64,000 nt of DNA from Trypanosoma brucei (GCA_000002445.1 AL929603.2:352001-416000); one strand, 5' to 3'; shown: positions 15,865 through 49,853, numbered from the stretch's first letter. Program-made: numbers and translations. The notes: generated by a model from the sequence alone, not told the origin.

Positions 15865-17622
15865 ATGGGTGGTATTCCTTCACGCGACGCGCCTACTACA
15901 TTGTTTTGCCTTCGGTACGGCACCCATGAGGTAGGACTCATTCCCCTCGTGTACCGCTACTTTCACAGTGATAACAAGGAGTTGCGAGAGCAGTTTGTGC
16001 GGGTGCGTAATGATCCGAGCATACGCTACAGCTTCATGCGTAGCCCCGAGTATCGTATGGATGAAATACCAAAGAAAGTGTATACAGAGAAGACTCTGGA
16101 CAAGTTCCTTGATGTTATCGATGAATCACTTTACGATTCCACAAGTGCGATGCTCGCAGATGAAGACGCGCCATTCCGGCCCGTTCCTTGCGCCGTTTGC
16201 TTCGTGTATGTTAATGGTCGTGAGGGATCTGATTGTTTTTCATTCTATGGCCGCCGCATTAATATCATTGGTCACTTTGGCTGTTACGAATCCGAGGATA
16301 GGGTTAGTGAAGGCCCATGCCTCCACGCCCGAAAAACTATTTTGAAGGCTGCGGGTGATCGCACGCTGGAGCGTGTTGTTACACTGGCCGCTATGATGCT
16401 CAAAGGGGAATTCTTCCGCGCCGTTCAAACGGTGTGCCCCACGCGGGACCCACTGGCAATGTTAAAGCGCCGACTGAATCCCTTGATACTTGTCGCCTCT
16501 ACACCATGGAACAGTTACCCCACCTTGAAGTTTGTTTACGATACCGCCGTTATTGCATGGGCGTATGGAAAGGAAGTCGTTGAGGCGGATCCGCCGCGCC
16601 TCTCCATGTACGAAATTGAACAAAGCGGTGAGGGTGGCTTATGTATGCGAGTCAGTGGCTCGGTGCTTTTGTGGGCTGTTATGCGCGTGTGTGAGACACT
16701 TACGCTTTCTGCAGTGCGTGGATCCTGGGAGCAGTACGTGCTGGATGACTTTGAGATGCAGCAGAAGGAAAAAATTGTCTCCCAGTGGCTTTCCACAAGC
16801 CCACATGTAAACAGTTTCCTCGGGTCAGAAACATTCACCGACCTCGTACAGAAACGACTGGCTACTCTTCTGCGGGAAGTTGTGCGCGCCCGTGAGACCC
16901 CGACAGAAGACACAACGCTGTGGGGTGAATCACAGGAGTATAGTCATGATGGAAAACTCTACCGTATCTTCAATTCCCCAACTTGCGGCCCTTTCCTTGC
17001 AACTGTGAAGAAGAAGGTGCCTAAGCGGGGAAGCAGCGCCAACACCGGCAATGCAAGTATTACAAGTGCAACTGGTGGTGACTCAGCGAGTGACCGGCGC
17101 TCCAGTGGTGTTCACCTCACGGACTCACCCAGCAGTGGTGGAGAAAATAAATCCCGCAGCTCCGGTCAGGGGAACCCCCGATCCAAAAACAATGGCAACC
17201 AACCTTCTGGTTTCCCCGCACACAACAATGCTGGTCAGCCCCCGCAGTACAAAGATGCTGTCAATAGTGTTCTCCAGTCGCAGTTCGCAACAGCTGCGCA
17301 GCGTGTCGTGTATCAAATGCCGCCTCCCGTCGGCAAAACCTCTCAGGGCCAAGTGTCCGTTTCCCCTCAGATGTCACCGCAGTTTGTACCGATGTTTCAA
17401 ACTGCACCTCCGCCACCCATGCAGCAATTTAGCGTTCCATATGTTGTAATGGCGCCACCCGAGTCACAGCCGCAGCCGCAGCCGCAACCTCAACCTCAAC
17501 CACAACCCCAAATGGGAATGGTGTTCCCAAGCACTGTTGCAAATTATGTGCTTTTGCCAGATGGGCGGGTCGGAATGATCAACGCACCAGCGCCCCCCAC
17601 TATGGGCTTCTGGGGTCAGTGA
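15865..17622 (+). CDS. Paralogue B of the same family
   Basis: The track ORF starts at a TTG at 15763, inside a TA repeat. The first in-frame ATG at 15865 gives MGGIPSRDAP, which aligns with the N-termini of paralogues A and C. Shared motifs are GLIPL, PVPCAVCFVY, IIGHFGC and GDRTLERV. The C-terminus carries a (QP)8 run and is P/Q-rich. Confidence 0.75.
   Translation: MGGIPSRDAPTTLFCLRYGTHEVGLIPLVYRYFHSDNKELREQFVRVRNDPSIRYSFMRSPEYRMDEIPKKVYTEKTLDKFLDVIDESLYDSTSAMLADEDAPFRPVPCAVCFVYVNGREGSDCFSFYGRRINIIGHFGCYESEDRVSEGPCLHARKTILKAAGDRTLERVVTLAAMMLKGEFFRAVQTVCPTRDPLAMLKRRLNPLILVASTPWNSYPTLKFVYDTAVIAWAYGKEVVEADPPRLSMYEIEQSGEGGLCMRVSGSVLLWAVMRVCETLTLSAVRGSWEQYVLDDFEMQQKEKIVSQWLSTSPHVNSFLGSETFTDLVQKRLATLLREVVRARETPTEDTTLWGESQEYSHDGKLYRIFNSPTCGPFLATVKKKVPKRGSSANTGNASITSATGGDSASDRRSSGVHLTDSPSSGGENKSRSSGQGNPRSKNNGNQPSGFPAHNNAGQPPQYKDAVNSVLQSQFATAAQRVVYQMPPPVGKTSQGQVSVSPQMSPQFVPMFQTAPPPPMQQFSVPYVVMAPPESQPQPQPQPQPQPQPQMGMVFPSTVANYVLLPDGRVGMINAPAPPTMGFWGQ
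17467..17512 (+). repeat. (CAGCCG)/(CAACCT) hexanucleotide repeat encoding (QP)8 in paralogue B
   Basis: Sequence: cagccgcagccgcagccgcaacctcaacctcaaccacaaccccaa. Confidence 0.8.
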
Positions 17623-33709: not shown

Positions 33710-36700
33710 ATGGTTTCTAAAGAGGAGAATGCGAACATCAAAAAGGGGGAGGAAAGCGACGCATATTTGCAGGAGCGTGGGATAAATAATATTATCGAGA
33801 ACCTTTTGCACGATATCACAAAATGTAGACCGGATGATCACTTGGAGTTTATGAAAGAGTGGTTGGCGACTCGAGAAACTGGAAAAAAAGAATTTTCTGA
33901 TGGGAATGAAGCGAAGCAGATGATCGAATCACCACTTGAACGCGAGGCGACAGTTGGGGAAACGAGTGAATTCATTTCGGAAACAGTTCCCGAATTTGCC
34001 TTTTTCCAACCCGTGAAGAAACCATCAACGGTGTCGTGGGCGCTGGGTGCACGCGGTGTTGACAGCAGTCGTGCATTATTTACCTCCTCCAGAAAATCTC
34101 CGCAACCAATCGACTCGGTTAACACCACATCATCATCTTCAGGCAGCTCGGCACTTCAAAACAATTTAAGTGTTGCTGCTCAAGGCGTTTCAATGTGGGT
34201 CCCTTCCGCTGCTCCTCTTAAGGCATCGCCAGCAATTCCATCCAATCCATTACCTTTATCACCCACAACATCAGAAGGGCTCGTGAGTTGTGGAGAGCTG
34301 CCGTCGTCAGTGAAAAAAATAATAGAAGGAGTGCGGGGACTGTCGCCAGCCGACCACACAGCAGTAATAGCGTTTATTGACGGTTTGGCTAACAGAGCAG
34401 CAACCACACGATTAGGAAGGAGAAAGTTGTCAAATACGCGGGGATCATTCGGGGTTAATTTCAACGTTGATAGTTGTGGTCCCACCATGAGCGAGGGAGC
34501 CGTGCCACCATGTATTAGTTTGTTAGTGGATGATGACGGTAATGTGGGAGGGGAACGTAAACTCTCTTCGGTTCAATTACAACAATTAGTTGGCGATGCC
34601 TTAACAACAAGCATGATTGCAACTGGGGAAATATTCATGGAGGAGGAAAGAGCGGGTCAGTTGTCGGCCTCCACCACCCAAGGGGCGAGCACATTAGGAA
34701 GGAGGGTGAAAAAAGGAAGTAACTTGCAATTGGCACGTTTTACCGATTGTTTTTCCATGAGTGATCAGATTCTTCCTGGTTCGAACGGCGGCGTCGGCAG
34801 CGGCTCGGGTCCCAATGACGGAGCAACGGATTTGTCGCAAATGTTTTCGAGTGTTGATGAGTTTGCTGCCGTTCCAGTTAGTTTTATTCAACAATATATG
34901 CAACACAGTCGGCTCTCCTCAACCGTTAGTAGGGTTGATAGCGAGTACTCTTCGGGGGCGACCGTCAGCAGTGAGGATGAGGTAAGTGTGTTGCGTAAAG
35001 CTTTTCGGGCATGTAAGCGCTTCTCCGACTATAGCGAAACAGAAATAGAGGTACTCGCTCGTAATGCGCAAAGGTTGGAACTGCTTGCTGGTCACACATG
35101 TAACTTCAAGGACTCCATTTTCTACGTGCATAGTGGTTTGCTCCGCGTAGAGAACAATGAAGGTGTTCTTCGTGAACTTCCGGCAGGAACCTTCCTTGAT
35201 GCTCAATCCTGCGAGCAGCTTAATGATGCTAGGGAGCCGCTCGAGGTGCGTGCAGTATCTGATGCACTAGTTTTGATGTTGAAGGACGAGGCATTGGGAA
35301 CCATTCAGGAGAACGAAAAAAAACTGAAAAAACGGATGTTCGTAAGATGCCTGCAGAAGTCACCGCTTTTTGCAACAGTCCCGCTGAAACTTCTGAAAAA
35401 CATAGCCAATTATATGCATGTGCGAACGGTGGTCCAGGGAAAGGTATTGTTACGGAAAGGAGAGCATGTGGATTGGCTTTCAGTAGTTATCAGTGGCACG
35501 GTTAGTAGAGTAGTAGCCGGTGGCAATGGGAATCATGAAGTATTGCCGCAGAATAAGCAGAAAGGTGGCCCATCATCCTGTGCTGCTCCGTACATTTTAC
35601 CACCCGAATCCCAGAGCGGATTTGAGTTTGGTGAGCTTGAACTTCTGTTTAACTCGCCGATGCTTACGGATGTTGTTGCAACGACACCGGTAACTCTGGC
35701 ACGAGTTTGCACAGCATTTGTACACTCACTGCTACCCCACCAAATAATCAACGATATGAAATACGCTGTTGCTACCAATCCATCAGCTGGACCTCTTTTG
35801 ACCATAGCACCGGATGCAGTTCGTCACTCAGTTAAGATGTTTATGGAGCATTACTGTCAGTCAAAACGGTTGGGTGGAAGCCGACTGCGCAAAAGAATTA
35901 GTGTTAGCTCAACCGGGACAAATTCTACAAGAGGATTTGCAGATAGCGTCAGATGTGGAGTACTCGCATCCGGAGCCAAAGCGAGTGGCGGAGCAAACAA
36001 TCTCAAAGTGAGTTCGGCGGGAGAGATTGTGTATGCTGGAAAATGTAATTATTACCGCTTTCCTATAGCTGCTCTTGGGTTGGGGAACACAGTAGTGGTT
36101 GCCGTTGTATCGGATGGTACAATTATCCGCTGGAATGATAGCGCCGAGCGCATCACGGGGTTTTCGAGGCAGCAAGTGCTTGGGCACAGCGTCTTCTCTT
36201 CACTCACTACCGATTCTGCCCGGCGCTCCATGCGTGAGCAGTTGAAACTCGTGCGAAACGTTGCTGGGAACTGGAACCAGTACGTCAGTGCGGGTCTTTC
36301 TTCTCCACAAGTGTATCGTTTTCGTCAGGCGTCTGGAACACACTCCGTTGGGTTACTTTTGAGTGTTATTCCTTCTTCTGCGGGGTCCAATGAAGATGTT
36401 TTGTTACTTGTCGGGCGTGAAGCGGATAACAATGCCATGACAAGTTACGTTGAGGATACCACCCGGTGGTTGAATGACGTTCTGCGGCCGCAGCTGTCGG
36501 CGTTCCGTAAACGTGTGTGTGAATATGAAGAAAGGAAGTGGAATATTACTTTGGAGGAAGGCGCAAAGCTTCATGGCTATGTGGAGGCGTGTAACCAACT
36601 TATGGACCGTTACATGCGCCTTGCTAACCTAAACAAACATTCAGTAGATGCTCTGTGGAAACCGGTGCGGATGCAAAATGTGTTACGACAGTTTCTGCAG

Positions 36701-38938
36701 GAGGTGACACCTCATGTACAGCGGGCTGGGAACAAGCTTACCACAGACGTTGTGGCAGGGCCCAAGGGCGAGGTATTTCTTCATGTGGAATACGTGCTGG
36801 ATGTACTGCGTGGAATGGTACTTGATGCTAACAAGAATAGACCCAACTATCATATGCATATCGTTGTTGAGGCTGTTTTGCCCACCACTATGCATCAGGA
36901 TAGTACAACAATGCCCTGCCAGGGTGAAAAGTCCACTTCCTGTGACTTGGCATTTCACTCCGTCTTGGATCAATCGCGAGTGAGTCTCGACACACCCCAC
37001 TGCACAACATCGCAAATAACCGCGAGTGAAGACAGCATTCGACAACGCTCTGCTCACTCTCCCCGGCAATTAAGTAAATGGCCCTCATATATGCAGCTTA
37101 TTCGGTTTATATTTACGATTAGCGAAAGTGAGTCCGGCCTTTCGATGGCGAATGATAACACCAGTGGTGGGGCAGCTACCACCCCAAGTGGTGAAGTCCC
37201 GCGTAGCAGCAAAATTCATCATAGTTTTTATGCAGGAAAGGAATGTGGAGACCTTGTTGCTGCGATGGGAGGTGAGGTTTTTTCCGAGCAACGTGGAATG
37301 AACGGTTCGGGTCATTGTGTTACGGTAGAACTACCGCTATTACCGACGCCTTGGGAAGAGGAGGACGACGAAGATGAGGCACCTACATCTTCTACTACAG
37401 GACCGCCATTTGCTGTTATTCTTGCTGACAAGAATGAGAAGGAGCGCAACAGTGTCTGTAAATTGTTGTGGGCACGTCGGCACCCTGTTTTTTCTGTATC
37501 GTCATTGTCGGAAGTGATGATGAGGATTGAAAGCCCGGACATTGGTCTTCTCATTATAGATCCGTGTCATTTAGATATGACAGAGGGGGAAAGCAAGACA
37601 TTTGCCAAAGCTCCCTACCCATTCAACATGGAACATGGGGGAAATCATTTCGTTGTCCTTATTTACACCGAAGACTTCGACGACTGGAGGGTGCAAAAAA
37701 TGAAGAAGTGCAGTCACGTGATTGAGTTGCCCAAGCCAGCAACTACTTCACTGCTTCACTCCACTTTGTATGAAGCGGAGCGTATGGTTATTCGTGTGCG
37801 AGAGTACGAGGAGCGTGTGGCTCAAATGAGGTCTGCCTTTCGTGAGTTCCAAGCTGAGAGGTATGAAATGGGTAAAGTATTGGGCAGAGGATCGTATGGT
37901 GAGGTTTATGAAGTCGTTGATCGACTCACAGGTGGAAAGTTAGCCGTAAAGCGCATGACTCTTAGCGATGGTTTATTGGCTGCAGATGTTGCTGAGGAAT
38001 TTCTGTCTGTGACATCTATGCGGCATAAAAACATGATTCATTACTTCTATTGTGAGCAAGAGAGTGAGACAGTGCTGCGGTTATATATGGAGTTGGCATC
38101 TGGTGGGACTCTTAAAGATAAGATCCGTCAACATGGTGGACCGCTTCCGCTCCCAACTGTTGTGCAATACCTTGAGGATCTTTGTGACGGACTCGCTTAT
38201 ATCCACTCCAATTTGTTCGTGCATGGGGATATTAAAACTGCGAATGCGCTAGTTGATCAATATGGTCGTGTTAAAATTGGTGATTTTGGTACCGCAAAGC
38301 GTCTCAAACGAAAATCGGAAAAACTTTACAAATTTGTCGGAACCCCGCGTTTTATGGCACCCGAGCTCATTAACGCGGACGCCACACAGGGACATGGCTA
38401 CGATCAAAAGGGAGATATTTGGTCACTTGGATGTGTTGCTTTGGAGTTAGCGACGGGGAAACCACCATTTTGGCATATTGAAGAGGCACAAGGTATAGGT
38501 ATATTCAACTTCCTGATTAATTTGAAGGAAACACCAGATTTGTCGATAATCGAACATAGCGATCCTGACTTTTATGCATTTGTGAGGAGGTGCCTCCATG
38601 TTGATCCCAAGGAGCGACCAACAGCGCAGGAGTTATTGACAAGTAATCTCTTTCAGCGTGCGGGGACGAGTGTGAGGGATATGAGGTTGGCGCAGCAAAT
38701 ACAAGCTGCAACGAAGTTACATGAATATGCGGCGCTTAAGGAAGACAATAGTGACGATGAGAATGACGATGACGATGACGATGAAGATGATGATGATGAC
38801 GATATGTTCGTGGAGTGTGATTTTCCGTTAGTGTTCTCTGGAGTTGGCACATTTCCAAATGGCGACCAAAATGTTGCGACGAGTAACCGTGGCAATATTG
38901 ATAACGAAAAGAAAGGAACTGCAAAATTGAGTGGGTGA
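33710..38938 (+). CDS. Giant multidomain Ser/Thr protein kinase (1742 aa): RIIa-like docking domain, two cNMP-binding-like folds, PAS, histidine-kinase-like core, receiver-like domain, STE-type kinase, poly-Asp tail
   Basis: ATG start. Kinase subdomains are clear: LGRGSYGEV (Gly loop), LAVKRM (VAIK), HGDIKTAN (catalytic loop, non-RD), KIGDFGTAK (DFG), GTPRFMAPE (APE). Other domains are listed below as separate features. Confidence 0.9.
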   Translation: MVSKEENANIKKGEESDAYLQERGINNIIENLLHDITKCRPDDHLEFMKEWLATRETGKKEFSDGNEAKQMIESPLEREATVGETSEFISETVPEFAFFQPVKKPSTVSWALGARGVDSSRALFTSSRKSPQPIDSVNTTSSSSGSSALQNNLSVAAQGVSMWVPSAAPLKASPAIPSNPLPLSPTTSEGLVSCGELPSSVKKIIEGVRGLSPADHTAVIAFIDGLANRAATTRLGRRKLSNTRGSFGVNFNVDSCGPTMSEGAVPPCISLLVDDDGNVGGERKLSSVQLQQLVGDALTTSMIATGEIFMEEERAGQLSASTTQGASTLGRRVKKGSNLQLARFTDCFSMSDQILPGSNGGVGSGSGPNDGATDLSQMFSSVDEFAAVPVSFIQQYMQHSRLSSTVSRVDSEYSSGATVSSEDEVSVLRKAFRACKRFSDYSETEIEVLARNAQRLELLAGHTCNFKDSIFYVHSGLLRVENNEGVLRELPAGTFLDAQSCEQLNDAREPLEVRAVSDALVLMLKDEALGTIQENEKKLKKRMFVRCLQKSPLFATVPLKLLKNIANYMHVRTVVQGKVLLRKGEHVDWLSVVISGTVSRVVAGGNGNHEVLPQNKQKGGPSSCAAPYILPPESQSGFEFGELELLFNSPMLTDVVATTPVTLARVCTAFVHSLLPHQIINDMKYAVATNPSAGPLLTIAPDAVRHSVKMFMEHYCQSKRLGGSRLRKRISVSSTGTNSTRGFADSVRCGVLASGAKASGGANNLKVSSAGEIVYAGKCNYYRFPIAALGLGNTVVVAVVSDGTIIRWNDSAERITGFSRQQVLGHSVFSSLTTDSARRSMREQLKLVRNVAGNWNQYVSAGLSSPQVYRFRQASGTHSVGLLLSVIPSSAGSNEDVLLLVGREADNNAMTSYVEDTTRWLNDVLRPQLSAFRKRVCEYEERKWNITLEEGAKLHGYVEACNQLMDRYMRLANLNKHSVDALWKPVRMQNVLRQFLQEVTPHVQRAGNKLTTDVVAGPKGEVFLHVEYVLDVLRGMVLDANKNRPNYHMHIVVEAVLPTTMHQDSTTMPCQGEKSTSCDLAFHSVLDQSRVSLDTPHCTTSQITASEDSIRQRSAHSPRQLSKWPSYMQLIRFIFTISESESGLSMANDNTSGGAATTPSGEVPRSSKIHHSFYAGKECGDLVAAMGGEVFSEQRGMNGSGHCVTVELPLLPTPWEEEDDEDEAPTSSTTGPPFAVILADKNEKERNSVCKLLWARRHPVFSVSSLSEVMMRIESPDIGLLIIDPCHLDMTEGESKTFAKAPYPFNMEHGGNHFVVLIYTEDFDDWRVQKMKKCSHVIELPKPATTSLLHSTLYEAERMVIRVREYEERVAQMRSAFREFQAERYEMGKVLGRGSYGEVYEVVDRLTGGKLAVKRMTLSDGLLAADVAEEFLSVTSMRHKNMIHYFYCEQESETVLRLYMELASGGTLKDKIRQHGGPLPLPTVVQYLEDLCDGLAYIHSNLFVHGDIKTANALVDQYGRVKIGDFGTAKRLKRKSEKLYKFVGTPRFMAPELINADATQGHGYDQKGDIWSLGCVALELATGKPPFWHIEEAQGIGIFNFLINLKETPDLSIIEHSDPDFYAFVRRCLHVDPKERPTAQELLTSNLFQRAGTSVRDMRLAQQIQAATKLHEYAALKEDNSDDENDDDDDDEDDDDDDMFVECDFPLVFSGVGTFPNGDQNVATSNRGNIDNEKKGTAKLSG
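33758..33880 (+). other. RIIa-like dimerisation/docking domain (aa 17-57)
   Basis: The stretch LQERGINNIIENLLHDITKCRPDDHLEFMKEWLATRE resembles the PKA RII N-terminal DD helix pair (e.g. ..[30 protein letters not shown]). Confidence 0.5.
34982..35749 (+). other. Two tandem cyclic-nucleotide-binding-like folds (aa 425-680); the second retains FGELELL but lacks the phosphate-binding Arg
   Basis: Domain 2 reads FEFGELELLFNSPMLTDVVATTPVTLARV. It has a canonical beta-barrel/PBC layout with Glu present, but the PRAAT Arg is replaced by PMLTD. Domain 1 is more degenerate (FLDAQSCEQL). Confidence 0.55.
36032..36409 (+). other. PAS domain (aa 775-900)
   Basis: The stretch VVVAVVSDGTIIRWNDSAERITGFSRQQVLGHSVFSSLTTDS ... 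VGLLLSVIP...DVLLLVGRE shows the classic PAS sensor pattern. Confidence 0.65.
36443..37348 (+). other. Degenerate histidine-kinase core: DHp-like helix with His replaced by Asp, plus HATPase_c-like N-box and G2-box (aa 912-1213)
   Basis: WLNDVLRPQLSAF matches the H-box sHELRTPLnAi, with Asp where the phospho-His sits. VRMQNVLRQFLQEV matches the X-region. HVEYVLDVLRGMVLDANKNRPNYHMHIVVE matches the N-box (RL.QVL.NLl.NAiKyT..G.I.V). GDLVAAMGGEVFSEQRGMNGSGHCVTVELPLLP matches the G2/G3 region (GLGLaIv..lve.hGG.i.v.S..G.Gs.F.f.lPl). These are by-eye matches only. Confidence 0.45.
37400..37744 (+). other. Receiver (CheY-like REC)-like domain (aa 1231-1345)
   Basis: FAVILADKNE matches beta1 and the acidic pocket. 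GLLIIDPCHLDMTEG matches beta3 with a phospho-acceptor-position Asp. VVLIYTED matches beta4 with the conserved Thr. HVIELPKPA matches beta5 with the conserved Lys-Pro. Confidence 0.45.
37862..38659 (+). other. STE/MAP3K-like Ser/Thr kinase catalytic domain (aa 1385-1650), followed by a poly-Asp tail at 38747-38803
   Basis: All core kinase motifs are present. GTPxxMAPE is typical of the STE group. HGD replaces HRD. The acidic run DDENDDDDDDEDDDDDD is encoded by GAT/GAC repeats. Confidence 0.8.
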
Positions 38939-38974
38939 AATGGACGATATCGTATGACTTGGTGTACATAAATA

Positions 38975-39006
<32 letters not shown>

Positions 39007-40423
39007 GCGTGTGTGTGTTTGTGTCGTTTCTGTCTTTAGGGGTCCCGCAATGAACGAGGGAAATTTTAGCAACATGTCCTCATGTTTTTTTTTATTATTT
39101 GACTCTGATAATTGTGAAAAGATGCAACCGCGGAAGCGGCGCAACTTGTGCTTTACTTTTTTTAATTCTCCCCTCCTTTGTCTTTCCTCAATTTTTTTTG
39201 TTTATTTATTTAATAACTTATTTACTTGTTTGGGCTTTTATGCAGGGCAATGGTGGAGCAAACATTGAATAAAAAGTAATTGTTAATTAGTCAAATGAGG
39301 CACGCGTATGTACATTTGTGTTTTTATATATTATGAAGGAGTAATATGTTGCTTAGAGAGAAAAAAAAAAAGAGAGAGAGAGAGAGAGGCCTCTTACATG
39401 CAGGTTCCAAGCAAATTAAAAAGATTTTCCACATATGAAAAAAGAAAAAAGAAAAAAGAAAGAAAGGAGAAAACTTCGCAGTTATGCGTAGGTGGTATAA
39501 TTTATTTACGTGAGTGCGTGGGGAAAGCGGAGGGGGGGGAAGGGAAAATAATAAAAAGAATGAAGTTTTTTTTTTAGCTTTTGTCTTTTTTCCCCCGTTA
39601 TCGTTTAGTTATTTACGGGATTGAGCGATTACATTTTCCTAGTTGCGCTCGCTTACACAAATAAATGAAGGGATGTAAAACAAAACAAAACAAAAAAGGA
39701 AAAATAATAACAAAAAAATAGAATAGTAGAGGAAGTCAAACATGTGGTGGATGGTTATGCGGTGTCTTTTTGTTTTTAATTTTTACCTACACGGTGGTTA
39801 TTATAAGTTTTTTCGTTTGCTTTGTTGAACCCCATGTGAAATGATCGCAACATGCGGGCGTAATATATAAATACATAAATATAAATAAAAAATAAATGAA
39901 AAAAAATGGTTTTGGAGTGTTTGCGTTTATATATAAAATGCGGATATCATATTGTCCGGAAACACAGAACTTTCTTTTATATATATATATATATCTTTTT
40001 TTTTTGTAAAGAAAAAAAATTGTATGGGAGCTAAAAGGAGAAGGTTGACCCCGTGAGATCGCGTTATTTTAAACATAAATGAGCGAAACCGGAATGAAAG
40101 AAACATGTGTAACAATAAATTATAATGAGCGGAGCTGAACACATCCAAAAGTCCTTTTTTTTAAAAAAAAGGGAGGGAAGAAGAGTAAATAAATAAAATT
40201 ATTTATTTATATAAAAAAATGTAAACATGTAAATAGATAGGAATAAAAGAGCGAAAAGGGAAGAATTAAGAGAAGACAGAACAGAACACATTTCGGGTTG
40301 TATATATTTTTTAGACGTGAGTTTCGCACCTTTGAAAGGTATTTTTAAATAGGAAATTGCTTTGTTTGTTTGTTTGTATGTTTTTTTTCTTTTTTTTAAT
40401 ACCCCCCTTTGAAAGAAACATAA

Positions 40424-40469
<46 letters not shown>

Positions 40470-42805
40470 GAAGAAGGAGAAGTTATATAGGTGAAAAATG
40501 TTATGAATTTATGTGCGGATATTTGGAAGAAAAAAAAAGAAAGAGCTGGGAACGAGCGAAAGCAATGCCCCCAAACGGTAACTTATAAAAGAAAGAAGAT
40601 GATTAACAACAAAAGAAAAAAACTGTAAGGGGGGGGGGTAAAGGCGAAATAGAATGGAAAAAGGAAAGGTGAAGAGAGGGGGGGGAAGTTATAATATCAT
40701 TTTTTTTTTTTGAAAAAAATTAAAACTGAAAAAGCATTAAGAAAAAAAAATCCTCTTTACGCACAGAGCGTACGTTTCTTTCCCTTTTTTTTATAAGAAA
40801 AAAAACTTATTTCCTCATTCCTTTTTTTTTTCTCTCTTCCGTTTCGTTTCACTGCCTTCTGTTTTCTGGGCTGAGGATTTGTAGTTGATTGCGACATGTA
40901 AATGAATATACATAACATACGCATACTAATGTAAATGTACGAATTTTAAAAAAATTATAATTTATCATTATTACATAACTAAGCACATGCTTAAATAAGA
41001 AATTTACGGGAGAAGAGTAATAAATGATGAGTTGATGAACCTCAAAAGAAAAATCAAATAAAATAAAGGGGCAGCGGTACGGTGATGTTTTTGCTAAATG
41101 CACTTATAAATAAAAATTTATATTCTTATTTACACTCATGTTTCCAGTTTTAGGCACTTATTTATGAACCTATGTATTTTTTGTTAGGTTTATTCATTCA
41201 CTTATCGAGTTACTAATTTCATTTTCATCATGATCATGACAATAACGGTTTTTAGGTGAATTTTTAAGATTATTTTTGTCGTTGCATATTTCGTTTGGAT
41301 TTTTTTTTACCGTTTTCCACTTTTTTCGCTTGTTTGTTTGTTGCTGTTCCTTTCGACTTTCTTACATTTGAGCAATTCATTAGAAAAAAAAAGGAAAATG
41401 GATCACTGTGGATTGCCAACCAGTGGGATGGGATTGCTACATAACTTTGCCCATTACTCCTTTCTTTTTCTTTTTTTTTTAACTCACTCCCTCCTTTCAT
41501 TTCCGCTCCAATTGTAATTACAACTGCGGTTCAGTACTTTTACTATTATTATTATTATTATTGCCTTTGAAGTTATACGTTCCAGTTTTTATACATGTAT
41601 TTATACTCAATACCTCCTTTTTTCCTTTTTTTTCTTTTGTGTGCGTGTTTTAGTTGTGCTAACTGTTATTAGTTGTGTCTCTTTCTTCTTGTCCTTTATT
41701 ACAACTGCTTCATCTTTTTCTCTTTTTGGCTTTCTCTCTCTCTCTTTCTCTTTCTTTCTTTGTTTTTGCCTCTTTAATTAGTTTTCTTTGTGTGTTAATG
41801 TTAGGTCTAGTCTATTATTATTATGTCATCTTATTAGTGCTGGTGCTATAAGTAACTGAGGATTCCTCACTTCATTTTCTCGCACTCATTCCATTTACCA
41901 CAGTTTTTAAACACACATGTTAATATTTACACACACACCTACAGAAGGAAAAGGAAGGAATAGGAAGGAAAGAGAGAAATGAAGGGGAAATTTGCACCCC
42001 GTAGCGATGCATATGTGAAATAATCGCATCATTAAAAATACAATAATAATAATTATTATTATTATTTTCACTATGAGGTATAAAAAATGCAGGATTACCG
42101 CTGTTGTTGTTTTACCTTTCTCAGGGGGTTTGTGCACTCGTCACTGCATTTATGAGTTGTAGTCCCATAAACCTCTTGTGAAGAGGTAATGCGACAGGAA
42201 CTAAGGGATACGAAAGAAATATTATCGATAGTGATGTTAATATTACTGTTATTACCCTTAAGTATATTTATTTATTTATTTAAAAAAAAGAAATGGTGAA
42301 CAAATGGCGGAAACTATTGAATAAGTTGTGATGTGCGGGATATTTGCTACTTAATTGTCTTTTATTTTCTAGTTGCATTGTCGTTACATTCCACGCATGG
42401 TTAAAAGGGCTCGGCAAATCTTCATATATATATATATATCATTCTGTCTTATGTGTTTCCCTTTTTTTCTTTTAATATTTTTGTGTCATAGTTTATTTTT
42501 TTTTCCCGTGCTTGTCTCCCTATTTTCATTTTTTTTTGTTTTGGTTCTGAGCGCACGTGGTGGTAGTTGAATGTTTTGTGTTCTTTCGAACTTTGTTGGG
42601 CCCTTCTTTCATTTCTTTGTAACTTCTTTTTTCTCAAAAAAAAAAATGTATGCATAATAATATAATACCCTGTGCTGAAGTGTAAGTAGGTTGCAACGAT
42701 TCACATGTTTCGACGTAGGAGAGCATTTCCACTCTTTTTTTTTCTCTCTTTTGCATATATAATTAACGGGATCACTCAAGGCTTTGCGTGAGAAGGTTAT
42801 TGAGA

Positions 42806-44761
42806 ATGACAGAAAGAGAGCTTGTCACGTTGGCACTGGGAAATTACGCCACTTTGGTCGCCGCTCAATGGGCTAATGGTACAACAAGTTATGACGTGGC
42901 TCACAACACGCTTTACACCGAGCGACACCTCCGAGCCGTCTGCGGTGGGGCGGTTGATAATAACCGGAGTGAATTGCAAAGTGGCACGGATGGTTTGATA
43001 CGAGTGCCGCGATTGGTTCTTTTGGATGCGCCACACGCCACACGATTGCGGTGTAAACCATCACTCAATGCAGCTGCTGCTGTACAGAACGAGGAGAGCG
43101 AGGGGGAGCATGAGCAGAATGAAACTAGAATTTATGATGATGATGATGATGATGATGATGACGATGAAAGTGAAAGTGAAAAGGATGCGGGTGGCGATGA
43201 TGCAGAGTCTCGGTATTATACACGAGGTGAGGTGGGGACAGGAGTTTTCCTTCAAGGCGATTCATTGGCAATGAACTCTGAAACACATGAAACGGGGGCG
43301 TTTGATGCACAGAGAAGCACCTCGGAAACTGCTGTTTCGTCCTTTCAAAAATCACAACCTTCACTGAAAGCCATAAAAAGACGGTTATTCCGTGAGAAGG
43401 ATGATCTCATTCCATGGTGGCAGTACATTTGCAGTGGTGTCGCCTCCGATGCGGTACATGTGTTACATCCGCTGCATCGCATTGGCGGTATCCCCACAGC
43501 TGGTGGCAACGACATACCGCTGCTTCATAACTTTGGCTTTGGAATGAGCCACCTTCGCTCCTCCGTGAGTAGTAATGTTGCGGACGTAGTGGAGAGCCTT
43601 CGAAGGCAGTTGGAAGATGCAGATTTATTGCAAGGACTTCAATGTTTTGTTGATGGGGACTCCGCCTTCGGTGGGGCTGCATGCAACATCATGGAGGAGT
43701 TCTGGGAAGATGCCGGTTCAAAGGTGCCTGCAACGTTTTTTTGCTGTTTTCAGACACTTCCGGAGGAAGTTGCCGCGGCGCATAGTGATGTGGACTTTGC
43801 GGATAGGCGGAAGGACGAGCAGTGCCTTAATCGGCTTCTCGCCACCGCGAAGTTATCGAGCCACGATAGCGCCGTGTATGTGCCAATGGAGCTGGCGCAG
43901 TGGCGAACATCTTTTGCCTCTTCTTCTTCCTTGAATGGATCCACTCATTTGGCTCCCAAAGCTGCTGCCTGGCTTCAGGATGATACAGCCACAGCACAAG
44001 TGGTTGCATCGTTTGCTGATACCACCCTTTACGGGACTCGCGACGAGGGAAAACTAAACACAGGGGGGTGTGGTGGCCCAGCTTTTTACATGCAAGATTG
44101 GCAAGCCGCCGTCAGGCCCACAAGATGCCTGAGAGTCGCATCAGCCCTTACTTCCATGCCCATGCCTGTACATGACGTACGATTACCTCGAGGGGACTTG
44201 TGGGACTTCCTCCAGCGGAATCCGTTGCTTCAAACGAGTTGTGGCGAGGGCGGCGGCTATTTTGCACCACTAACACATGCTGTAAGCTCGGGACCAGAGA
44301 AAGAGTCGGGCCGCGTTCTGGGCCACGCGGTTACGCTCCGCGGTGCGGGTCAATTGCACGACTTGACATACCCACGCCAGGAAGCCCTTTTGCGTTATGC
44401 GCTTCCGCTGCGATCGGGGAATTATCTGCCACTTATCACTGACAATAGTTATCCCATATCATCCACATTCCCCCGTGACTTTGTGCTCCCTAATGAGTTA
44501 GTGTCATCAGGAGCTCTGCAGGGCATTGATATGGGCTCGCACATCGTGTCTACATACGACTCGGCACCCATGTTACAGTCTATAGTTGCTCAGGCACAAA
44601 AAGTGGTAAGGCGAAGCCGTCACCTCCACGAAGCGTCGTATGAGATGGACGGTGATGAGTGGAAGGAGGTGCTGGAGGATGTCATGGTCATTCGCGATGA
44701 CTATTATCACCCAGCTGATGAGGATTATGCCGATAACGGTGATGATATTAGCATGAACTGA
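42806..44761 (+). CDS. Misato/DML1 family protein (tubulin/FtsZ-like, mitochondrial distribution and morphology)
   Basis: The track start at 42788 is a GTG. The first ATG at 42806 gives MTERELVTLALGNYATLVAAQWAN..DVAHNTLYTERHL..PRLVLLDAPHA, which aligns with the Misato N-terminus ([47 protein letters not shown]). An internal poly-Asp insertion is encoded by (GAT)n. Confidence 0.7.
   Translation: MTERELVTLALGNYATLVAAQWANGTTSYDVAHNTLYTERHLRAVCGGAVDNNRSELQSGTDGLIRVPRLVLLDAPHATRLRCKPSLNAAAAVQNEESEGEHEQNETRIYDDDDDDDDDDESESEKDAGGDDAESRYYTRGEVGTGVFLQGDSLAMNSETHETGAFDAQRSTSETAVSSFQKSQPSLKAIKRRLFREKDDLIPWWQYICSGVASDAVHVLHPLHRIGGIPTAGGNDIPLLHNFGFGMSHLRSSVSSNVADVVESLRRQLEDADLLQGLQCFVDGDSAFGGAACNIMEEFWEDAGSKVPATFFCCFQTLPEEVAAAHSDVDFADRRKDEQCLNRLLATAKLSSHDSAVYVPMELAQWRTSFASSSSLNGSTHLAPKAAAWLQDDTATAQVVASFADTTLYGTRDEGKLNTGGCGGPAFYMQDWQAAVRPTRCLRVASALTSMPMPVHDVRLPRGDLWDFLQRNPLLQTSCGEGGGYFAPLTHAVSSGPEKESGRVLGHAVTLRGAGQLHDLTYPRQEALLRYALPLRSGNYLPLITDNSYPISSTFPRDFVLPNELVSSGALQGIDMGSHIVSTYDSAPMLQSIVAQAQKVVRRSRHLHEASYEMDGDEWKEVLEDVMVIRDDYYHPADEDYADNGDDISMN
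43136..43175 (+). repeat. (GAT)n trinucleotide repeat encoding a poly-Asp tract inside the Misato-like CDS
   Basis: Sequence: gatgatgatgatgatgatgatgatgacgatgaa, encoding DDDDDDDDDDDDE. Confidence 0.85.
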
Positions 44762-45189: not shown

Positions 45190-47262
45190 ATGACAGACGG
45201 CGTTACATTACATGGAGAAACCGATGTGACGGTACAACGGCAGCAGCAGGAGCGGAACAAACGCATTGGAGGTGGTGCTTTCCACCCCACAACCCCTTCA
45301 GTGTACCGGTTTGAAAGCAGGGATGATTGTACAGTTTGGGAGACAACAAGTGCTCCACACACCCAGAAGCGCAGTGCTGCTGCGGACGAATATGTTACCG
45401 TATGTCTCAGCCCATTTCACGGTAGAAGACCCACAATACTATTTAAACCGTTTGATCGACCGTGTGACGATGATTTACTTGGAGCTGATAAACACATCTA
45501 TATTGAACCCTCACCACTGCCAAGGCTTCAAAGTGATGCAACTGAAGAAAGGAGTCAGGAAGAAGGTGTGTTTATTAAATGCCAGAGGACGGAGCAAATT
45601 GCCCGAACTGGACCGTACGGCACGCTCAGCTTTACGATGCCTGCCCCCGCAGTCCGCTTTTCTGCTGTTATGTGCGCTCTGGAGCGTGCGGGCTTTGTGG
45701 AAGACACAAGTTTACTCTCCAAATCCTGGTTGCTTAAATGGTGCAAACGCCCCGTACGCAGCGATTTTTCAAAACTGAGATTGTTTCAACGTATCAATCA
45801 CTTCCCGGGAACGTGGCGCCTCGGTAAGAAGGATGAGTTGCATCGGCACCTAGTCGCTGCAAGAGTGAGGTGGAACGCACAAATTGCTTCGGATAGTGGA
45901 GGCTACGGGGAAAGGCACCGCAGTAGCACTAACAGTAATGGTGACTGCTGTGAAGGAGGGAATAGCGAACATATGAATTTTTTCCCGGAAGCTTGGGTGT
46001 TGCCAGACGAACAGGAGGAACTGAATCGTGTACTGTGTGCGAAAGAAGAGCGTGGTAACGTGTTTATCGCTAAGCCCACAACAGCCGCATGTGGGCGAGG
46101 TATTCAACTCTTGGTAGCTGGGGAGCCTTCTCATTCCAGTTTAATGCGGCGACTAAATGGTGTACACAATAATTCGGATAGTACGCAGAGAGGACGTGGG
46201 GAAAACAACACACCCAACTTTCAATGTAGTAACGGTGCCGACATTCGTAGGTCATCTAATCGAATGATAGTGCAGCGCTACGTTTCGGATCCACTGTTAG
46301 TTGAAGGCTATAAGTTTGATTTGCGCCTCTATGTTGTTGTAACGTCATATGTACCTTTGCGCGCGTACCTCTACACGGAAGGGTTGGTGCGGTTCGCAAC
46401 TTCTCCATACCCAAACGACCCCGCCGGAGTCCGTGCTGAGGCGGTGATGGGTGAGAGGACGCTTACGGCACATCTTACAAATTTTACCATCAACAAGAAA
46501 TCGGAGGATTTCTTTTCGCCTGCCGGCGTGCACACCAACGATGCCGACGTTGAAGACACCGCGTCTGTAAACAGCGCTTCAAAGTGGACCCTTAGTGCTC
46601 TTGAAAGTCATTTTAACAAGCATGGTTTGGATTGGGATGGGACAATGAAACAAATACACGATATTCTCGTAAAAGTACTCCTTTCTGTGCAGCCCCACGT
46701 GAAGGCAGAAATGGACTCTATAGCCAGTGGCGGCAGTGGGAGCCGTGTGAGGGACAGTTGTTTTGAAGTTTACGGAGTGGATGTTTTGCTGCGCAGGCCA
46801 CCATCCTCGAAAGTAATACCGATTCCAGTTCTAATGGAAGTGAATATTATGCCGTCCCTCAGTACGCACTACTCGTTGCTTGATCAGTGTGTAAAGGGCA
46901 ATTTTGTTGCAGATATGCTCACGTTAGTTGGTCTTACTGCTGGTTCATCGCCTGTTAGCGCTGGTGGTACGCGCTGCAAAGGCAATGGCGACGGCAATAT
47001 GTCTCCGAGTGAAATTTACGGACATGCATTTCTTGATTCTTTGAATGATGTAACGGAGCGGGAGGCGTGTGTGAGAGCGGAGGAAGAGCAATTGCGAAGT
47101 AGGAACTTCATACGAATATGCCCAACATCAGAGTCATACAACCGCTATTGTGCTTTGTTTAGCGAGCCGGAAGGTGTGGGAAACAGATGCCGCTCGCTGG
47201 ATGAAGTGTTAAGCGCATGGGAACAGGCCAGACGTGACAACCCCCCATCGTGGGCTTCTTAA
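45190..47262 (+). CDS. Tubulin-tyrosine-ligase-like (TTLL) protein
   Basis: TTL-fold motifs: FIAKPTTAACGRGIQL, IVQRYVSDPLLVEGYKFDLRLYVVVTSYVPLRAYLYTEGLVRFATSPY, HLTNFTINKK, FEVYGVDVLL...PVLMEVNIMPSLS. Confidence 0.85.
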   Translation: MTDGVTLHGETDVTVQRQQQERNKRIGGGAFHPTTPSVYRFESRDDCTVWETTSAPHTQKRSAAADEYVTVCLSPFHGRRPTILFKPFDRPCDDDLLGADKHIYIEPSPLPRLQSDATEERSQEEGVFIKCQRTEQIARTGPYGTLSFTMPAPAVRFSAVMCALERAGFVEDTSLLSKSWLLKWCKRPVRSDFSKLRLFQRINHFPGTWRLGKKDELHRHLVAARVRWNAQIASDSGGYGERHRSSTNSNGDCCEGGNSEHMNFFPEAWVLPDEQEELNRVLCAKEERGNVFIAKPTTAACGRGIQLLVAGEPSHSSLMRRLNGVHNNSDSTQRGRGENNTPNFQCSNGADIRRSSNRMIVQRYVSDPLLVEGYKFDLRLYVVVTSYVPLRAYLYTEGLVRFATSPYPNDPAGVRAEAVMGERTLTAHLTNFTINKKSEDFFSPAGVHTNDADVEDTASVNSASKWTLSALESHFNKHGLDWDGTMKQIHDILVKVLLSVQPHVKAEMDSIASGGSGSRVRDSCFEVYGVDVLLRRPPSSKVIPIPVLMEVNIMPSLSTHYSLLDQCVKGNFVADMLTLVGLTAGSSPVSAGGTRCKGNGDGNMSPSEIYGHAFLDSLNDVTEREACVRAEEEQLRSRNFIRICPTSESYNRYCALFSEPEGVGNRCRSLDEVLSAWEQARRDNPPSWAS

Positions 47263-47475: not shown

Positions 47476-47580
47476 ACCGCATTTTTTTTCATTTTGATCA
47501 TTGTCGTTATTGTTGCGTGGCTATTTATTCCCTCAGCATCAATTTTACTGTTTTCTCGACACAATTTCTGCCTTGCACAA
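47476..47580 (+). promoter_or_regulatory. Pyrimidine-rich tract upstream of NSF; candidate trans-splice acceptor region
   Basis: ttttttttcattttgatcattgtcgttattgttgcgtggctatttattccctcagcatcaattttactgttttctcgac, followed by AG dinucleotides before the ATG at 47676. Confidence 0.35.
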
Positions 47581-47675
47581 GCACGCGCCGTGTGGAAGAT
47601 TTAAATAGACGGATAAATATAATAGGGAACAGACTACTTCCAAACAAAAACAAAAAAGAAAAGAGAAAAATAAAC

Positions 47676-49853
47676 ATGGGGAAAAGTTTTGTCGTACGGT
47701 CGGTCCTCACCGACGAGGATTCTTACGCCAACCGGATATACCTTAATCCCGCGGATAAGGCATTGTACAAACACCCTGATGGTGTTGTGATGATTAAAAA
47801 TTATCCCTTTACGATTGATGTCCGTGGCCCTATTGAGCGCGGGGAGGTCGCAATGAACAGCATTCAGCGCCGTTTAGTGGGCGTGACAACTACCGCAGGA
47901 AGCGTTGTGGAATTAGAGGATTATGTTGGCAGTGTAAGTTGCATTACAACCATGCATGTTTTGGTTGAACATGTTGCGGCATCCAAGAGGGGAGGAACCC
48001 TTGACTGTGATCTGTTCATTAAGACCTTCCGCAGACAATATAACTTTCAGTGCTTCCGCGATAAACAAGCTCTCGCTGTAAAGGTTGCAGACATGAAACT
48101 CTTGGTTACGATAACGAAGTTGGTCGTTGAAAATGACGGAACGGTTGGTCAAGTTTCTGAAAATATGGGTTTGATTGTGCGTGTTGGTGAAAAGAGTGAG
48201 ATAACGCTTAACAACCTGCCAGACGACCAGATAGACGCTCAGCAGCCACAAATACTGCAGACATTCAATCTTGAGGGACTTGGCATTGGTGGGCTTTCAA
48301 GTGAGTTTGCGCAGATATTCCGCCGTGCTTTTGCCAGCCGTCTGTTCCCGCAATCGTTTGTGAAAAAAGTTGGGGTGAAGCATGTCAAGGGTGTGTTGCT
48401 GTATGGGCCTCCTGGAACTGGTAAAACTCTTATTGCACGCAAAATCGGTGAAATTCTTAACTGTCGGCCTCCCAAAATAGTGAATGGACCTGAAGTGTTC
48501 AGCAAGTACGTTGGTGCAACTGAGGAGAATGTGCGAAAGTTGTTTGCTGATGCTGAGGCGGAAGCAGCTGCCAAAGGTGATCAATCGCAGTTGCATCTCA
48601 TCATTTTCGATGAGTTTGACTCCATTTGCAAACAGCGTGGAGCAACACGAGACTCCACAGGTGTCAACGATAATGTTGTAAATCAGCTTCTTTCCAAGAT
48701 TGATGGTGTTAATTCGCTAAACAACGTGTTGCTTATTGGAATGACAAACCGTATCGACCTTATCGACGAAGCGATTCTACGGCCAGGGCGATTTGAGGTC
48801 CACGTGGAAATTGGGTTGCCAAATGAAAAGGGTCGTGTGGAGATTCTCCGTATTCATACTCGCGGTATGCAGGAGAATAAAGTGCTGGGGAAGGATGTAG
48901 ACATTGAAAAACTCGCGGCGCTAACCAAAAACTACTCGGGTGCTGAGTTGGAGGGTGTTGTGCGCTCTGCTTCTTCCAATGCGTTCAACAGGCACATCAA
49001 CCTAGAAGATCCAAGTGAGATTATCAATCCACAAGACGTCTTTGTTACCCAAAACGATTTTCTGACAGCTATTGAAGAGCTGAAGCCGGCGTTTGGGCAA
49101 GCTAAGGAGGAATGCAACAATCTAAAGCGTGGTGGTATCATCAACTATGGCAAGGAATGGGTTGGTGTTGAGGATCGCTGCAGGCAATATGTGGATCAAC
49201 TGAAAAGTGAAGGTAAGCGAATCAACACCCTCACCGTTCTTATTGATGGGCGACCGGGCAGCGGCAAGTCTGCAGTGGCAGCTCATCTCGCAGATATGGC
49301 GGGTTTCCCGTACGTCCGTGTTATATCCAATGAGGATATGGTGGGATACGGTGAGGCACAAAAGGTGAACATCATTCGCAAAGCCTTTGACGACGCGGGC
49401 AAATCCCCGTTCAGTACCGTTATATTAGATGACGTGGAGCGCATTATTGAATTCTCTTACATGGGTGGGCGTTATAGCAATGCTATTCTCCAGGCTCTTT
49501 TAGTACTAATTAAGCGGCCACCACCAAATGAACGAAAGTTACTTGTTGTTGCGACTACCTCAATGTCTGAAGTGATGGACACTTTGGAACTCACTTCGTG
49601 TTTCTCGGTTAAAATGCATGTGCCGTGTGCCCCACAGAGTGCATTGGAGAAGATTGCACAGGAGATGGGACTGCAGTGGATGGATGAGCAAACCAAAGTA
49701 ACCTGCAAGACGGCCATAACGGAACCGATGCCCATCAAGCAGATGATGTTGTTGCTGGAAATGTCGGCGGAAAAGTGTGGAACGGGGCAACTTACAATAA
49801 TGGCTCAAACGTTCAGCCAAGCTCTCGATTCCATTGCGGGAAGGTCAGAGTAG
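47676..49853 (+). CDS. NSF: N-ethylmaleimide-sensitive factor (NSF) vesicle-fusing AAA ATPase
   Basis: The first ATG that fits is at 47676 (MGKSFVVRSVL..); upstream track residues are intergenic read-through. Two AAA domains are present: D1 Walker A GVLLYGPPGTGKT with DEFDSI (Walker B), and D2 GRPGSGKS. The total length is as expected. Confidence 0.9.
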   Translation: MGKSFVVRSVLTDEDSYANRIYLNPADKALYKHPDGVVMIKNYPFTIDVRGPIERGEVAMNSIQRRLVGVTTTAGSVVELEDYVGSVSCITTMHVLVEHVAASKRGGTLDCDLFIKTFRRQYNFQCFRDKQALAVKVADMKLLVTITKLVVENDGTVGQVSENMGLIVRVGEKSEITLNNLPDDQIDAQQPQILQTFNLEGLGIGGLSSEFAQIFRRAFASRLFPQSFVKKVGVKHVKGVLLYGPPGTGKTLIARKIGEILNCRPPKIVNGPEVFSKYVGATEENVRKLFADAEAEAAAKGDQSQLHLIIFDEFDSICKQRGATRDSTGVNDNVVNQLLSKIDGVNSLNNVLLIGMTNRIDLIDEAILRPGRFEVHVEIGLPNEKGRVEILRIHTRGMQENKVLGKDVDIEKLAALTKNYSGAELEGVVRSASSNAFNRHINLEDPSEIINPQDVFVTQNDFLTAIEELKPAFGQAKEECNNLKRGGIINYGKEWVGVEDRCRQYVDQLKSEGKRINTLTVLIDGRPGSGKSAVAAHLADMAGFPYVRVISNEDMVGYGEAQKVNIIRKAFDDAGKSPFSTVILDDVERIIEFSYMGGRYSNAILQALLVLIKRPPPNERKLLVVATTSMSEVMDTLELTSCFSVKMHVPCAPQSALEKIAQEMGLQWMDEQTKVTCKTAITEPMPIKQMMLLLEMSAEKCGTGQLTIMAQTFSQALDSIAGRSE

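Follow-up and report, generated by a model that had tools for sequence, protein, structure and literature searches.

How does a kinase from a group without canonical two-component signalling come to carry what looks like the body of a hybrid histidine kinase (HK)? In trypanosomatids few proteins are recognisable as receptors, canonical two-component signalling is absent, and environment sensing by their roughly 170 kinases is largely unexplained. The question is raised by one gene, Tb927.1.1530, in a stretch of 64,000 nucleotides of Trypanosoma brucei DNA (GCA_000002445.1 AL929603.2:352001-416000; hereafter the window, with positions counted from its first letter), whose source record we take to correspond to chromosome 1. 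An original prediction, made from the sequence alone, had described the product as a Ser/Thr kinase with RIIa, cyclic-nucleotide (cNMP) and PAS domains in front and a degenerate HK and receiver in the middle. Here, family profiles and predicted structures support aa 900-1350 as a DHp-CA-receiver cassette that lacks the phospho-acceptor His.

The gene is an uninterrupted ATG-to-stop open reading frame (ORF) of 1742 codons at 33710..38938 on the plus strand, and its protein is identical to XP_001218855.1 / CAJ16132.1 (‘protein kinase, putative’, Trypanosoma brucei TREU927; NCBI/UniRef). It is T. brucei Tb927.1.1530, because a published phosphopeptide and published RNA interference (RNAi) primers, two independent links, both map to it. 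The phosphopeptide AGQLSApSTTQGASTLGR equals aa 315-331 of the ORF and shows that bloodstream forms make the protein and phosphorylate it at Ser321 (PMC2716717), and the primers (PMC3894213) map uniquely within the ORF at 36284-36303 (+) and 36667-36686 (-). Both the phosphoproteome and the RNAi-screen catalogues list the gene as an STE kinase, and in the kinome-wide screen of cultured bloodstream forms it was scored ‘No LOF’ (PMC3894213). A Logan-assembled copy (P0001) differs from the ORF protein at eight residues (aa 68, 345, 426, 580, 619, 873, 1069 and 1293), none of them at a motif position considered here; strain polymorphism is the presumed cause.

The order of domains that had been read by eye is confirmed: an RIIa-like helix, two cNMP-type folds, a PAS domain, a DHp hairpin, a GHKL/CA fold, a CheY-like receiver, a helical linker, an STE kinase and an acidic tail. 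All of the motifs quoted with it lie where they had been placed (NDVLRPQLSAF at aa 922, VLDVLRGMVLDANKNRP at aa 1029, GDLVAAMGGEV... at aa 1180, FGELELLFNSPMLTD at aa 640, HGD at 1505, DFG at 1525, APE at 1550 and the poly-Asp run at 1679-1698). When Pfam was run on the whole protein and on six sub-fragments (E<=10), the single T. brucei sequence supported only three of the claimed domains, namely Pkinase, cNMP_binding and PAS. For aa 901-1380 there was no match to HisKA, HATPase_c or Response_reg even at E<=10, so that the profile search proposed along with the original prediction came back empty for the very part of the protein that makes it unusual.

The evidence for the middle of the protein comes from its relatives. 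An exhaustive phmmer search with aa 440-1380 against 1.84 billion representatives found full-length orthologues in T. vivax, T. congolense, T. rangeli, T. melophagium and T. conorhini (38-42% identity), giant relatives of 2300-4500 aa in Leishmania donovani (XP_003860418.1), L. tarentolae, Leptomonas and Phytomonas, a Bodo saltans relative (A0A0S4J2G9), and further members in the diplonemids Artemidia and Hemistasia, in Papus and among several environmental eukaryotic proteins. Two of these links, at E 6.8e-40 (P0018) and 1e-55 (Bodo P0017), lead to proteins with a recognisable HATPase_c domain. Distant members carry Pfam matches in the same order, cNMP_binding, PAS, HATPase_c (E down to 3e-18 with whole proteins) and Pkinase, and hidden Markov models of the Trypanosoma orthologues find the DHp, CA, receiver-like and N-terminal blocks in distant relatives. 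The best non-euglenozoan match, a 4799-aa protein of Paulinella micropora (P0007, E 8e-103), was rejected as a family member, its score being due to 31 PAS-like stretches.

A profile of 15 family sequences over aa 900-1230 matches solved HKs in the PDB, GacS first (E 1.8e-9) and then CheA, ZraS, WalK, ShkA, RetS and ETR1, and HATPase_c is matched by six of the 15 relatives on their own (best E 2.4e-19). With the profile restricted to the six Trypanosoma orthologues, the CA region gave zero PDB matches at E<=10. Because of this the sequence argument is a transitive one: trypanosome CA copies are too degenerate for direct detection and are connected to HKs through bodonid, diplonemid and environmental intermediates.

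Structure prediction leads to the same fold. An AlphaFold2 (AF2) model of aa 900-1380, made with an alignment of 13 family sequences of which some have intact HK motifs, has a mean pLDDT of 66.8, with structured blocks at 72-91 and three inserts that are predicted to be disordered. Its topology consists of two long helices, an alpha/beta domain and a (beta-alpha)5 domain whose last helix continues to the kinase. Foldseek against the PDB ranks ShkA first (E 2.6e-10, 449 columns), and the other 49 matches listed are HKs or modules related to them, with RetS, DivL and plant phytochromes among these. A control model from six Trypanosoma sequences only keeps the topology (pLDDT 61.3) and again has ShkA on top (E 2.5e-9, 466 columns), followed by HK modules; because it repeats both the topology and the top match, the predicted fold assignment is robust.

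The empty Pfam and Trypanosoma-only CA searches, together with the roughly 130 of 481 residues predicted as disordered in the first model, would also fit a coiled coil or disordered linker at aa 900-1350 that resembles an HK and receiver by chance. Such a region would not be expected to yield what was found here, DHp, CA and receiver folds in two independent AF2 models, for which two methods return HK and receiver structures, phmmer ties to HATPase_c-bearing relatives, and profiles that match solved HKs and receivers. We give chance resemblance next to no credence and regard it as effectively refuted already.

The phospho-acceptor His is missing in every family member. Over aa 900-990 the alignment shows no column in which His is conserved, and helix alpha1 of the T. 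brucei hairpin (aa 907-941) is without His. In the H-box the original prediction had seen His replaced by Asp; the loss of His stands, while the equivalence of Asp923 to that His is drawn from motif similarity and heptad register only. The H-box-like stretch WLNDVLRPQLSAF (aa 920-932) resembles LR(T)P.L, and its heptad L921, L925, L929 and F932 corresponds to I258, L262, L266 and I269 of HK853. We infer the position rather than read it from an alignment, since hhalign of the family profile with HK853 (94.7% probability) aligned alpha2 through the N-box and left helix alpha1 unaligned. Across 13 diverse members position 923 reads D/E/D/D/D/N/G/S/S/D/S/L/D.

The CA domain has the expected fold, interrupted by two disordered inserts (aa ~1059-1129 and 1143-1172), but the labels given to its ATP-binding boxes did not hold. 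The proposed N-box Asn, N1041, lies two residues past the canonical position, which is D1039 in T. brucei, is Asp or Ser in Trypanosoma, and is Asn only in diplonemids and P0037. What had been called the G2 box is a conserved M-G-G with its preceding helix and belongs to the G3 region (GG1187-1188, kept). G1 (DxGxG) has become E-S-E-S-G at 1139-1143 of T. brucei and is absent or altered in the other trypanosomes, and G2 (GxGxG) is lost, the T. brucei protein reading F-Y-A-G at 1173-1176.

More distant members are different. Artemidia (P0052), Hemistasia (P0065), P0018, P0037 and P0044 have intact N, G1 (DTGxGI) and G2 boxes without the His, with HATPase_c matches down to E 2.4e-19, and in such relatives the CA domain may phosphorylate something other than His. 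These relatives speak for a rival reading in which the CA domain would still bind nucleotide and phosphorylate Ser/Thr in the manner of PDK/BCKDK or phytochromes, and the protein would have two catalytic kinase activities. In six Trypanosoma species, however, the N-box Asn is Asp or Ser, G1 is E-S-E-S-G or absent, and G2 is lost; some 100 residues of disordered insert break up the domain, and the Trypanosoma-only CA profile has no PDB relative. A residual nucleotide-dependent role in trypanosomes is unlikely on this sequence evidence, and a second active kinase is very improbable.

The receiver is better preserved. A profile of aa 1222-1363 aligns over its whole length with receivers of solved structure, among them RpfC REC (E 1.5e-5), NtrC1 and several response regulators, and 8 of 17 members match Pfam Response_reg on their own (best 8.4e-6), the T. 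brucei sequence not among them. Higher-ranked matches of this profile to de novo designed TIM barrels are artefacts of short repeated ‘ADILIVD’-type matches of ~10 bits each and were discarded. The Asp, Thr and Lys-Pro assigned to the T. brucei receiver are in place; in the family the Asp and Lys are invariant (D1284 and K1342 in a 17-sequence alignment of aa 1222-1363 from diverse members) and the Thr is not. Position 1320 is Thr in T. brucei and T, C, A, V or S across the family, and the acidic pair is a single residue, with D or E always at 1240 and Ala, Val or Leu at 1239. A receiver-like block stands upstream of the kinase in all 33 kinase-bearing proteins among the 150 matches listed, with a gap of ~30 residues in the relatives checked.

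A separate feature of the 17 receiver-like domains is the motif LW-x-R-x-H-A-V, in which Arg1256 and His1258 are invariant and Trp1254 nearly so (aa 1256-1258, 37475-37483). Not an element of the standard receiver signature, it maps to the alpha1-beta2 region, on the side of the domain away from the Asp pocket, where it may serve for docking.

The active site of the receiver raises the main rival to a non-catalytic scaffold, a real phospho-switch in which only the HK half is dead and D1284 is phosphorylated by an acetyl phosphate-type donor or in trans and thereby controls the STE kinase. The invariance of D1284 and K1342, the acidic residue always found on beta1 and T1320 in T. brucei all favour it, and the paralogue DAK, to which we return below, keeps its receiver Asp (PMC8519429). 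The first acidic position has nevertheless become Ala, Val or Leu, the beta4 position varies among five residues, and a donor His occurs in no family member. We also know of no HPt protein or canonical HK in trypanosomatids, a point of background on which no search was made here. On balance we think a phospho-switch unlikely.

Conservation of the cassette bears on whether it does anything at all. Over six Trypanosoma species aa 900-1380 have a mean column identity of 56%, with 66 invariant positions outside the inserts, which argues for a function rather than a spacer. One could hold that the cassette is a mere leftover of evolution, which transmits no signal and does no more than space the domains or act as a dimerisation stalk: its catalytic motifs are lost, it tolerates large disordered inserts, and RNAi gives no growth phenotype. 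That is hard to square with strong constraint in Trypanosoma and beyond (including W920, G1188, P1209, R1256, H1258, D1284 and K1342) or with the fixed length of the receiver-to-kinase linker, and it would leave the upstream sensors no route to the kinase. A mere relic seems to us improbable, more so than a phospho-switch.

The reading we favour, and hold to be reasonably probable, is that Tb927.1.1530 encodes a soluble multi-sensor STE Ser/Thr kinase in which an ancestral hybrid-HK cassette is kept as a non-catalytic allosteric and dimerisation scaffold and not as a phosphorelay. The protein would dimerise through its RIIa-like helices and DHp hairpin. Ligands at the PAS domain and at fold B, the latter unlikely to be cAMP or cGMP and possibly a nucleoside, would shift the packing of the DHp bundle, the pseudo-CA domain and the receiver. 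The helix formed by alpha5 and the linker would relay this change to the N-lobe of the kinase domain, the sole catalytic output, with the receiver acting as a conformational switch element that is probably not phosphorylated by an intramolecular His.

Several points weigh against this scaffold model. Dimerisation, ligand binding, phosphorylation and kinase regulation are all steps that we infer from anatomy. With D1240, D1284, T1320 and K1342 all retained, the active site of the receiver is almost whole, which is usually read as competence for phosphorylation. Because the N, G1 and G2 boxes are intact in the diplonemids and in other remote members despite the missing His, the CA domain had, and in some lineages may still have, a nucleotide-dependent role that a scaffold leaves unexplained. 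The AF2 models say little about how the domains are oriented to one another (pTM 0.40-0.44), and since knockdown in bloodstream forms causes no loss of fitness, no phenotype anchors the model.

At the front of the protein, the RIIa assignment likewise gains from the family. The single sequence scores 12.8-13.6 bits against a Pfam cut-off of 22.4. The family profile of this block, which is conserved across the kinase family, matches the dimerisation/docking domain of PKA RI-alpha (E 1.5e-5) and EFCAB10 (9e-6), as well as SP17, RII-beta and DPY30; essentially all PDB matches listed are RIIa or DPY-30 folds, and six of 12 relatives match Pfam RIIa on their own. These similarities support aa 17-56 as a putative dimerisation and docking helix pair.

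The cNMP-type folds are recognised by Pfam directly, with 48.5 bits (cut-off 27.5) on aa 421-700; the match falls into three stretches but represents two folds, fold B being divided by an insert. That the second fold lacks the phosphate-clamping Arg, as had been claimed, is borne out by the alignment: Met651 occupies the Arg position, and no family member has the clamping Arg in either fold. Fold A of T. brucei has also lost FGE. The cassette of fold B, GELELLFNSPMLT (aa 641-653, nt 35630-35668, plus strand), keeps E642 and has an extra Glu, E644; relatives read GELEFLF.H.(T/A)VADVVA. It aligns gap-free with the ribose-binding cassettes RBC-A and RBC-B of TbPKAR (GELELMYQTPTVA and GELEFLNNHANVA), which are experimentally defined and nucleoside-binding, and in which a second Glu replaces Ala and clashes with the cyclic phosphate (PMC10959531).

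The similarity suggests that fold B may bind nucleosides and not cNMPs, and thereby gives a concrete ligand hypothesis. TbPKAR (PMC10959531, PMC6440977) shares with Tb927.1.1530 the absence of the clamping Arg from cNMP-type folds and the second Glu in the cassette (GELE...). It differs in that it regulates a separate catalytic subunit, whereas here the folds share one chain with a pseudo-HK and an STE kinase. The affinity of TbPKAR stems from a capping Tyr and an alphaD lid, while the likeness here is at the level of the cassette only, and fold A of the T. brucei kinase (CNB-A) is without the cassette altogether. A family of nucleoside-gated MAP3K-like kinases, in which fold B would bind a purine nucleoside and signal via the dead hybrid-HK scaffold to the STE kinase, is a speculation that we consider doubtful. 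If true, it would be a second class of nucleoside receptor in trypanosomatids, and the fusion would be older than the kinetoplastid-diplonemid split.

At the other end, the kinase domain belongs by sequence to the STE group and is complete. The Pkinase match spans positions 1-262 of 263, the nearest solved structures are ASK1/MAP3K5, MST3/4, MEKK2 and HPK1 (PDB), and all catalytic motifs are present (GRGSYG, K1414, HGD with D1507, N1512, DFG1525 and APE1550). The original prediction of a complete, non-RD STE-type kinase is thus right for T. brucei, although non-RD is not a conserved trait: HGD is found in T. brucei, T. vivax, T. congolense and T. melophagium, and HRD in T. rangeli and T. conorhini. 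Orthologues have acidic runs of differing composition at the place of the poly-Asp tail.

Gene order ties this kinase to one of the giant relatives. In Phytomonas EM1 (HF955061.1:793813-825737) a 3974-aa kinase is followed by a tubulin-tyrosine-ligase (TTL) gene and then by an NSF-like double-AAA gene, and the same order is found 3' of the T. brucei kinase (TTL, E 6e-124; AAA, 61% identity). Because the order kinase, TTL, NSF-like AAA is common to both, Tb927.1.1530 is, on synteny, the positional orthologue of the giant Phytomonas kinase. LdBPK_151260, tried as a guess at the L. donovani counterpart, is a nucleoside transporter and was rejected.

Features of Tb927.1.1530 and neighbouring genes in the window
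Feature	Position (nt)	Strand	Basis
ORF, Tb927.1.1530, 1742 aa	33710..38938	+	identity with XP_001218855.1, RNAi primers, phosphopeptide
Putative RIIa/DPY-30-type dimerisation-docking helix pair, aa 17-56	33758..33877	+	family profile
Ser321, phosphorylated, in low-complexity linker (aa ~60-425)	34670..34672	+	bloodstream-form phosphoproteome (PMC2716717)
cNMP-binding fold A, aa ~430-545, degenerate cassette (GTFLDAQS... replacing FGELAL..PRAA)	34997..35344	+	Pfam cNMP_binding, alignment with relatives, RI-alpha landmark
cNMP-binding fold B, aa ~550-690, insert at aa ~603-636	35357..35779	+	Pfam cNMP_binding, alignment
PAS domain, aa ~780-900	36047..36409	+	Pfam PAS_9 E 5e-9, PAS E 2e-8 (sub-sequence)
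DHp-like helical hairpin, helices aa 907-941 and 948-973	36428..36628	+	AF2 secondary structure, Foldseek, hhalign
Degenerate CA (GHKL/Bergerat) domain, aa ~984-1210	36659..37339	+	
CheY-like receiver, aa ~1235-1345: D1240 (beta1), D1284 (beta3), T1320 (beta4), K1342-P1343 (beta5)	37412..37744	+	
Helical linker prolonging receiver helix alpha5 into the kinase, aa 1346-1384	37745..37861	+	helix in both AF2 models (model residues 447-480)
STE-group (MAP3K/STE20-like) kinase domain, aa 1385-1647	37862..38650	+	Pfam Pkinase E 1e-58
Acidic (poly-Asp) tail, aa 1679-1698	38744..38803	+	sequence
HEAT-repeat PP2A-A-like protein	1241-2962	+	neighbouring ORF
Weak Tubulin_3 (Misato-like) match	42788-44761	+	neighbouring ORF
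Tubulin-tyrosine-ligase (TTL) family protein	45190-47262	+	neighbouring ORF
NSF-like double-AAA ATPase	47517-49853	+	neighbouring ORF
1523-aa protein with TruD pseudouridine-synthase segment	53678-58249	+	neighbouring ORF
DEAD-box helicase	60960-63179	+	neighbouring ORF

The neighbours in the window all lie on the plus strand, as is typical of a polycistronic unit. For the double-AAA ATPase the listed ORF opens with GTG, but the true start is probably Met54 (MGKSFVV), where the alignment begins. Pfam gave nothing at E<=0.001 for three ORFs of 619-664 aa (8261-10252, 15763-17622 and 22878-24872, plus strand). An antisense ORF of 163 aa (38653-39144, minus strand) was set aside as a low-complexity artefact, with poly-Ser opposite the poly-Asp tail and IYIYIY from an intergenic TA-rich repeat. 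Directly 3' of the kinase stop is an AT-rich stretch; coding sequence has ~47-52% GC and intergenic sequence ~27-34%.

Among bacterial proteins, the closest in predicted structure is ShkA of Caulobacter (PDB 6qrj), the top Foldseek match to both models over DHp, CA and receiver (449-466 columns, 15-16% identity). It differs in being an active HK with a phospho-His, intact ATP boxes, two receiver domains and no eukaryotic protein kinase (ePK) output. RetS, DivL (a tyrosine kinase according to its PDB title) and the HK-related modules of plant phytochromes are HK-like scaffolds that signal without canonical His-Asp chemistry. Neither these nor ETR1 are fused to an ePK, and their sensor ends are different.

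In Leishmania, Parsons et al. (2005, PMC1266030) noted a pair of cNMP-binding domains and a PAS domain in LmjF15.1200, a very large STE kinase, and Tb927.1.1530 is likewise an STE kinase with two cNMP folds and PAS. According to a review from 2022, LmxM.15.1200 occurs in Leishmania only and its deletion impairs sand-fly colonisation (PMC7618733), so the published position is that this kinase has no T. brucei orthologue (PMC1266030, PMC7618733). The giant proteins of Leishmania, Leptomonas and Phytomonas (3000-4500 aa) share with Tb927.1.1530 the RIIa-like, cNMP, PAS, DHp, CA, receiver and kinase blocks and differ in being 2-2.5x its length. That they are of the LmjF15.1200 type rests on the matching description only (very large, STE, two cNMP domains and PAS). 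Read with that limit, the Phytomonas synteny contradicts statements that T. brucei has no orthologue, and corrects the record by assigning it a counterpart to the giant cNMP/PAS STE kinase of the Leishmania type. The sand-fly defect of the giant kinase (PMC7618733), set beside the absence of a bloodstream-form RNAi defect, suggests that a phenotype for Tb927.1.1530 may lie in the tsetse stages.

The nearest precedent is in T. brucei itself. DAK (‘dual ancestor kinase’, Tb927.9.3120) was found by HHpred to have PAS, DHp, CA and receiver domains before an ePK, with the conserved His mutated and the receiver Asp retained (Jensen et al. 2021, PLoS One, PMC8519429). Tb927.1.1530 has the same PAS-DHp-CA-receiver-ePK order, has also lost the His, and has kept the receiver Asp. 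DAK is ~1000 aa long with its kinase domain at aa 737-980, has predicted transmembrane domains and an endoplasmic reticulum location, and has no reported cNMP or RIIa domain (PMC8519429); Tb927.1.1530 is set apart from that description by its 1742 aa, its predicted solubility, and an RIIa-like helix and two cNMP folds in front. A membrane-bound arrangement like that of DAK was considered and rejected: Tb927.1.1530 has no credible transmembrane segment (top 19-residue hydropathy 1.62), and the idea was dropped because the sole hydrophobic peak falls inside the PAS core. The two kinases have distinct Bodo counterparts, A0A0S4J2G9 for Tb927.1.1530 and A0A0S4IKM7 for DAK, and among the ~1000-aa PAS matches only P0034 (1157 aa, environmental) has DAK-like size and layout.

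In light of DAK (PMC8519429) and of the LmjF15.1200 front end (PMC1266030), the earlier presentation of this architecture as without precedent was overstated. Tb927.1.1530 is better regarded as another lineage, with equipment of its own, of a kinase type that entered the literature in 2021; the gene was also on record as STE before, and the novelty is limited to that extent. Our literature search, which did not extend to supplementary files or InterPro, found no paper describing an HK cassette in Tb927.1.1530 or LmjF15.1200. What is new is the HK cassette in this soluble second lineage, reaching to diplonemids; the absence of the His family-wide, even where the ATP-binding boxes are intact; the T. 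brucei orthology to giant Phytomonas/Leishmania-type kinases; and the candidate PKAR-like ribose-binding signature in fold B. If these findings hold, the HK-plus-receiver cassette would be a recurrent, ancient regulatory chassis in Euglenozoa, in kinetoplastids and diplonemids alike, that extends beyond DAK, is His-less throughout the sampled family, and is here wired to PAS and cNMP-type sensors.

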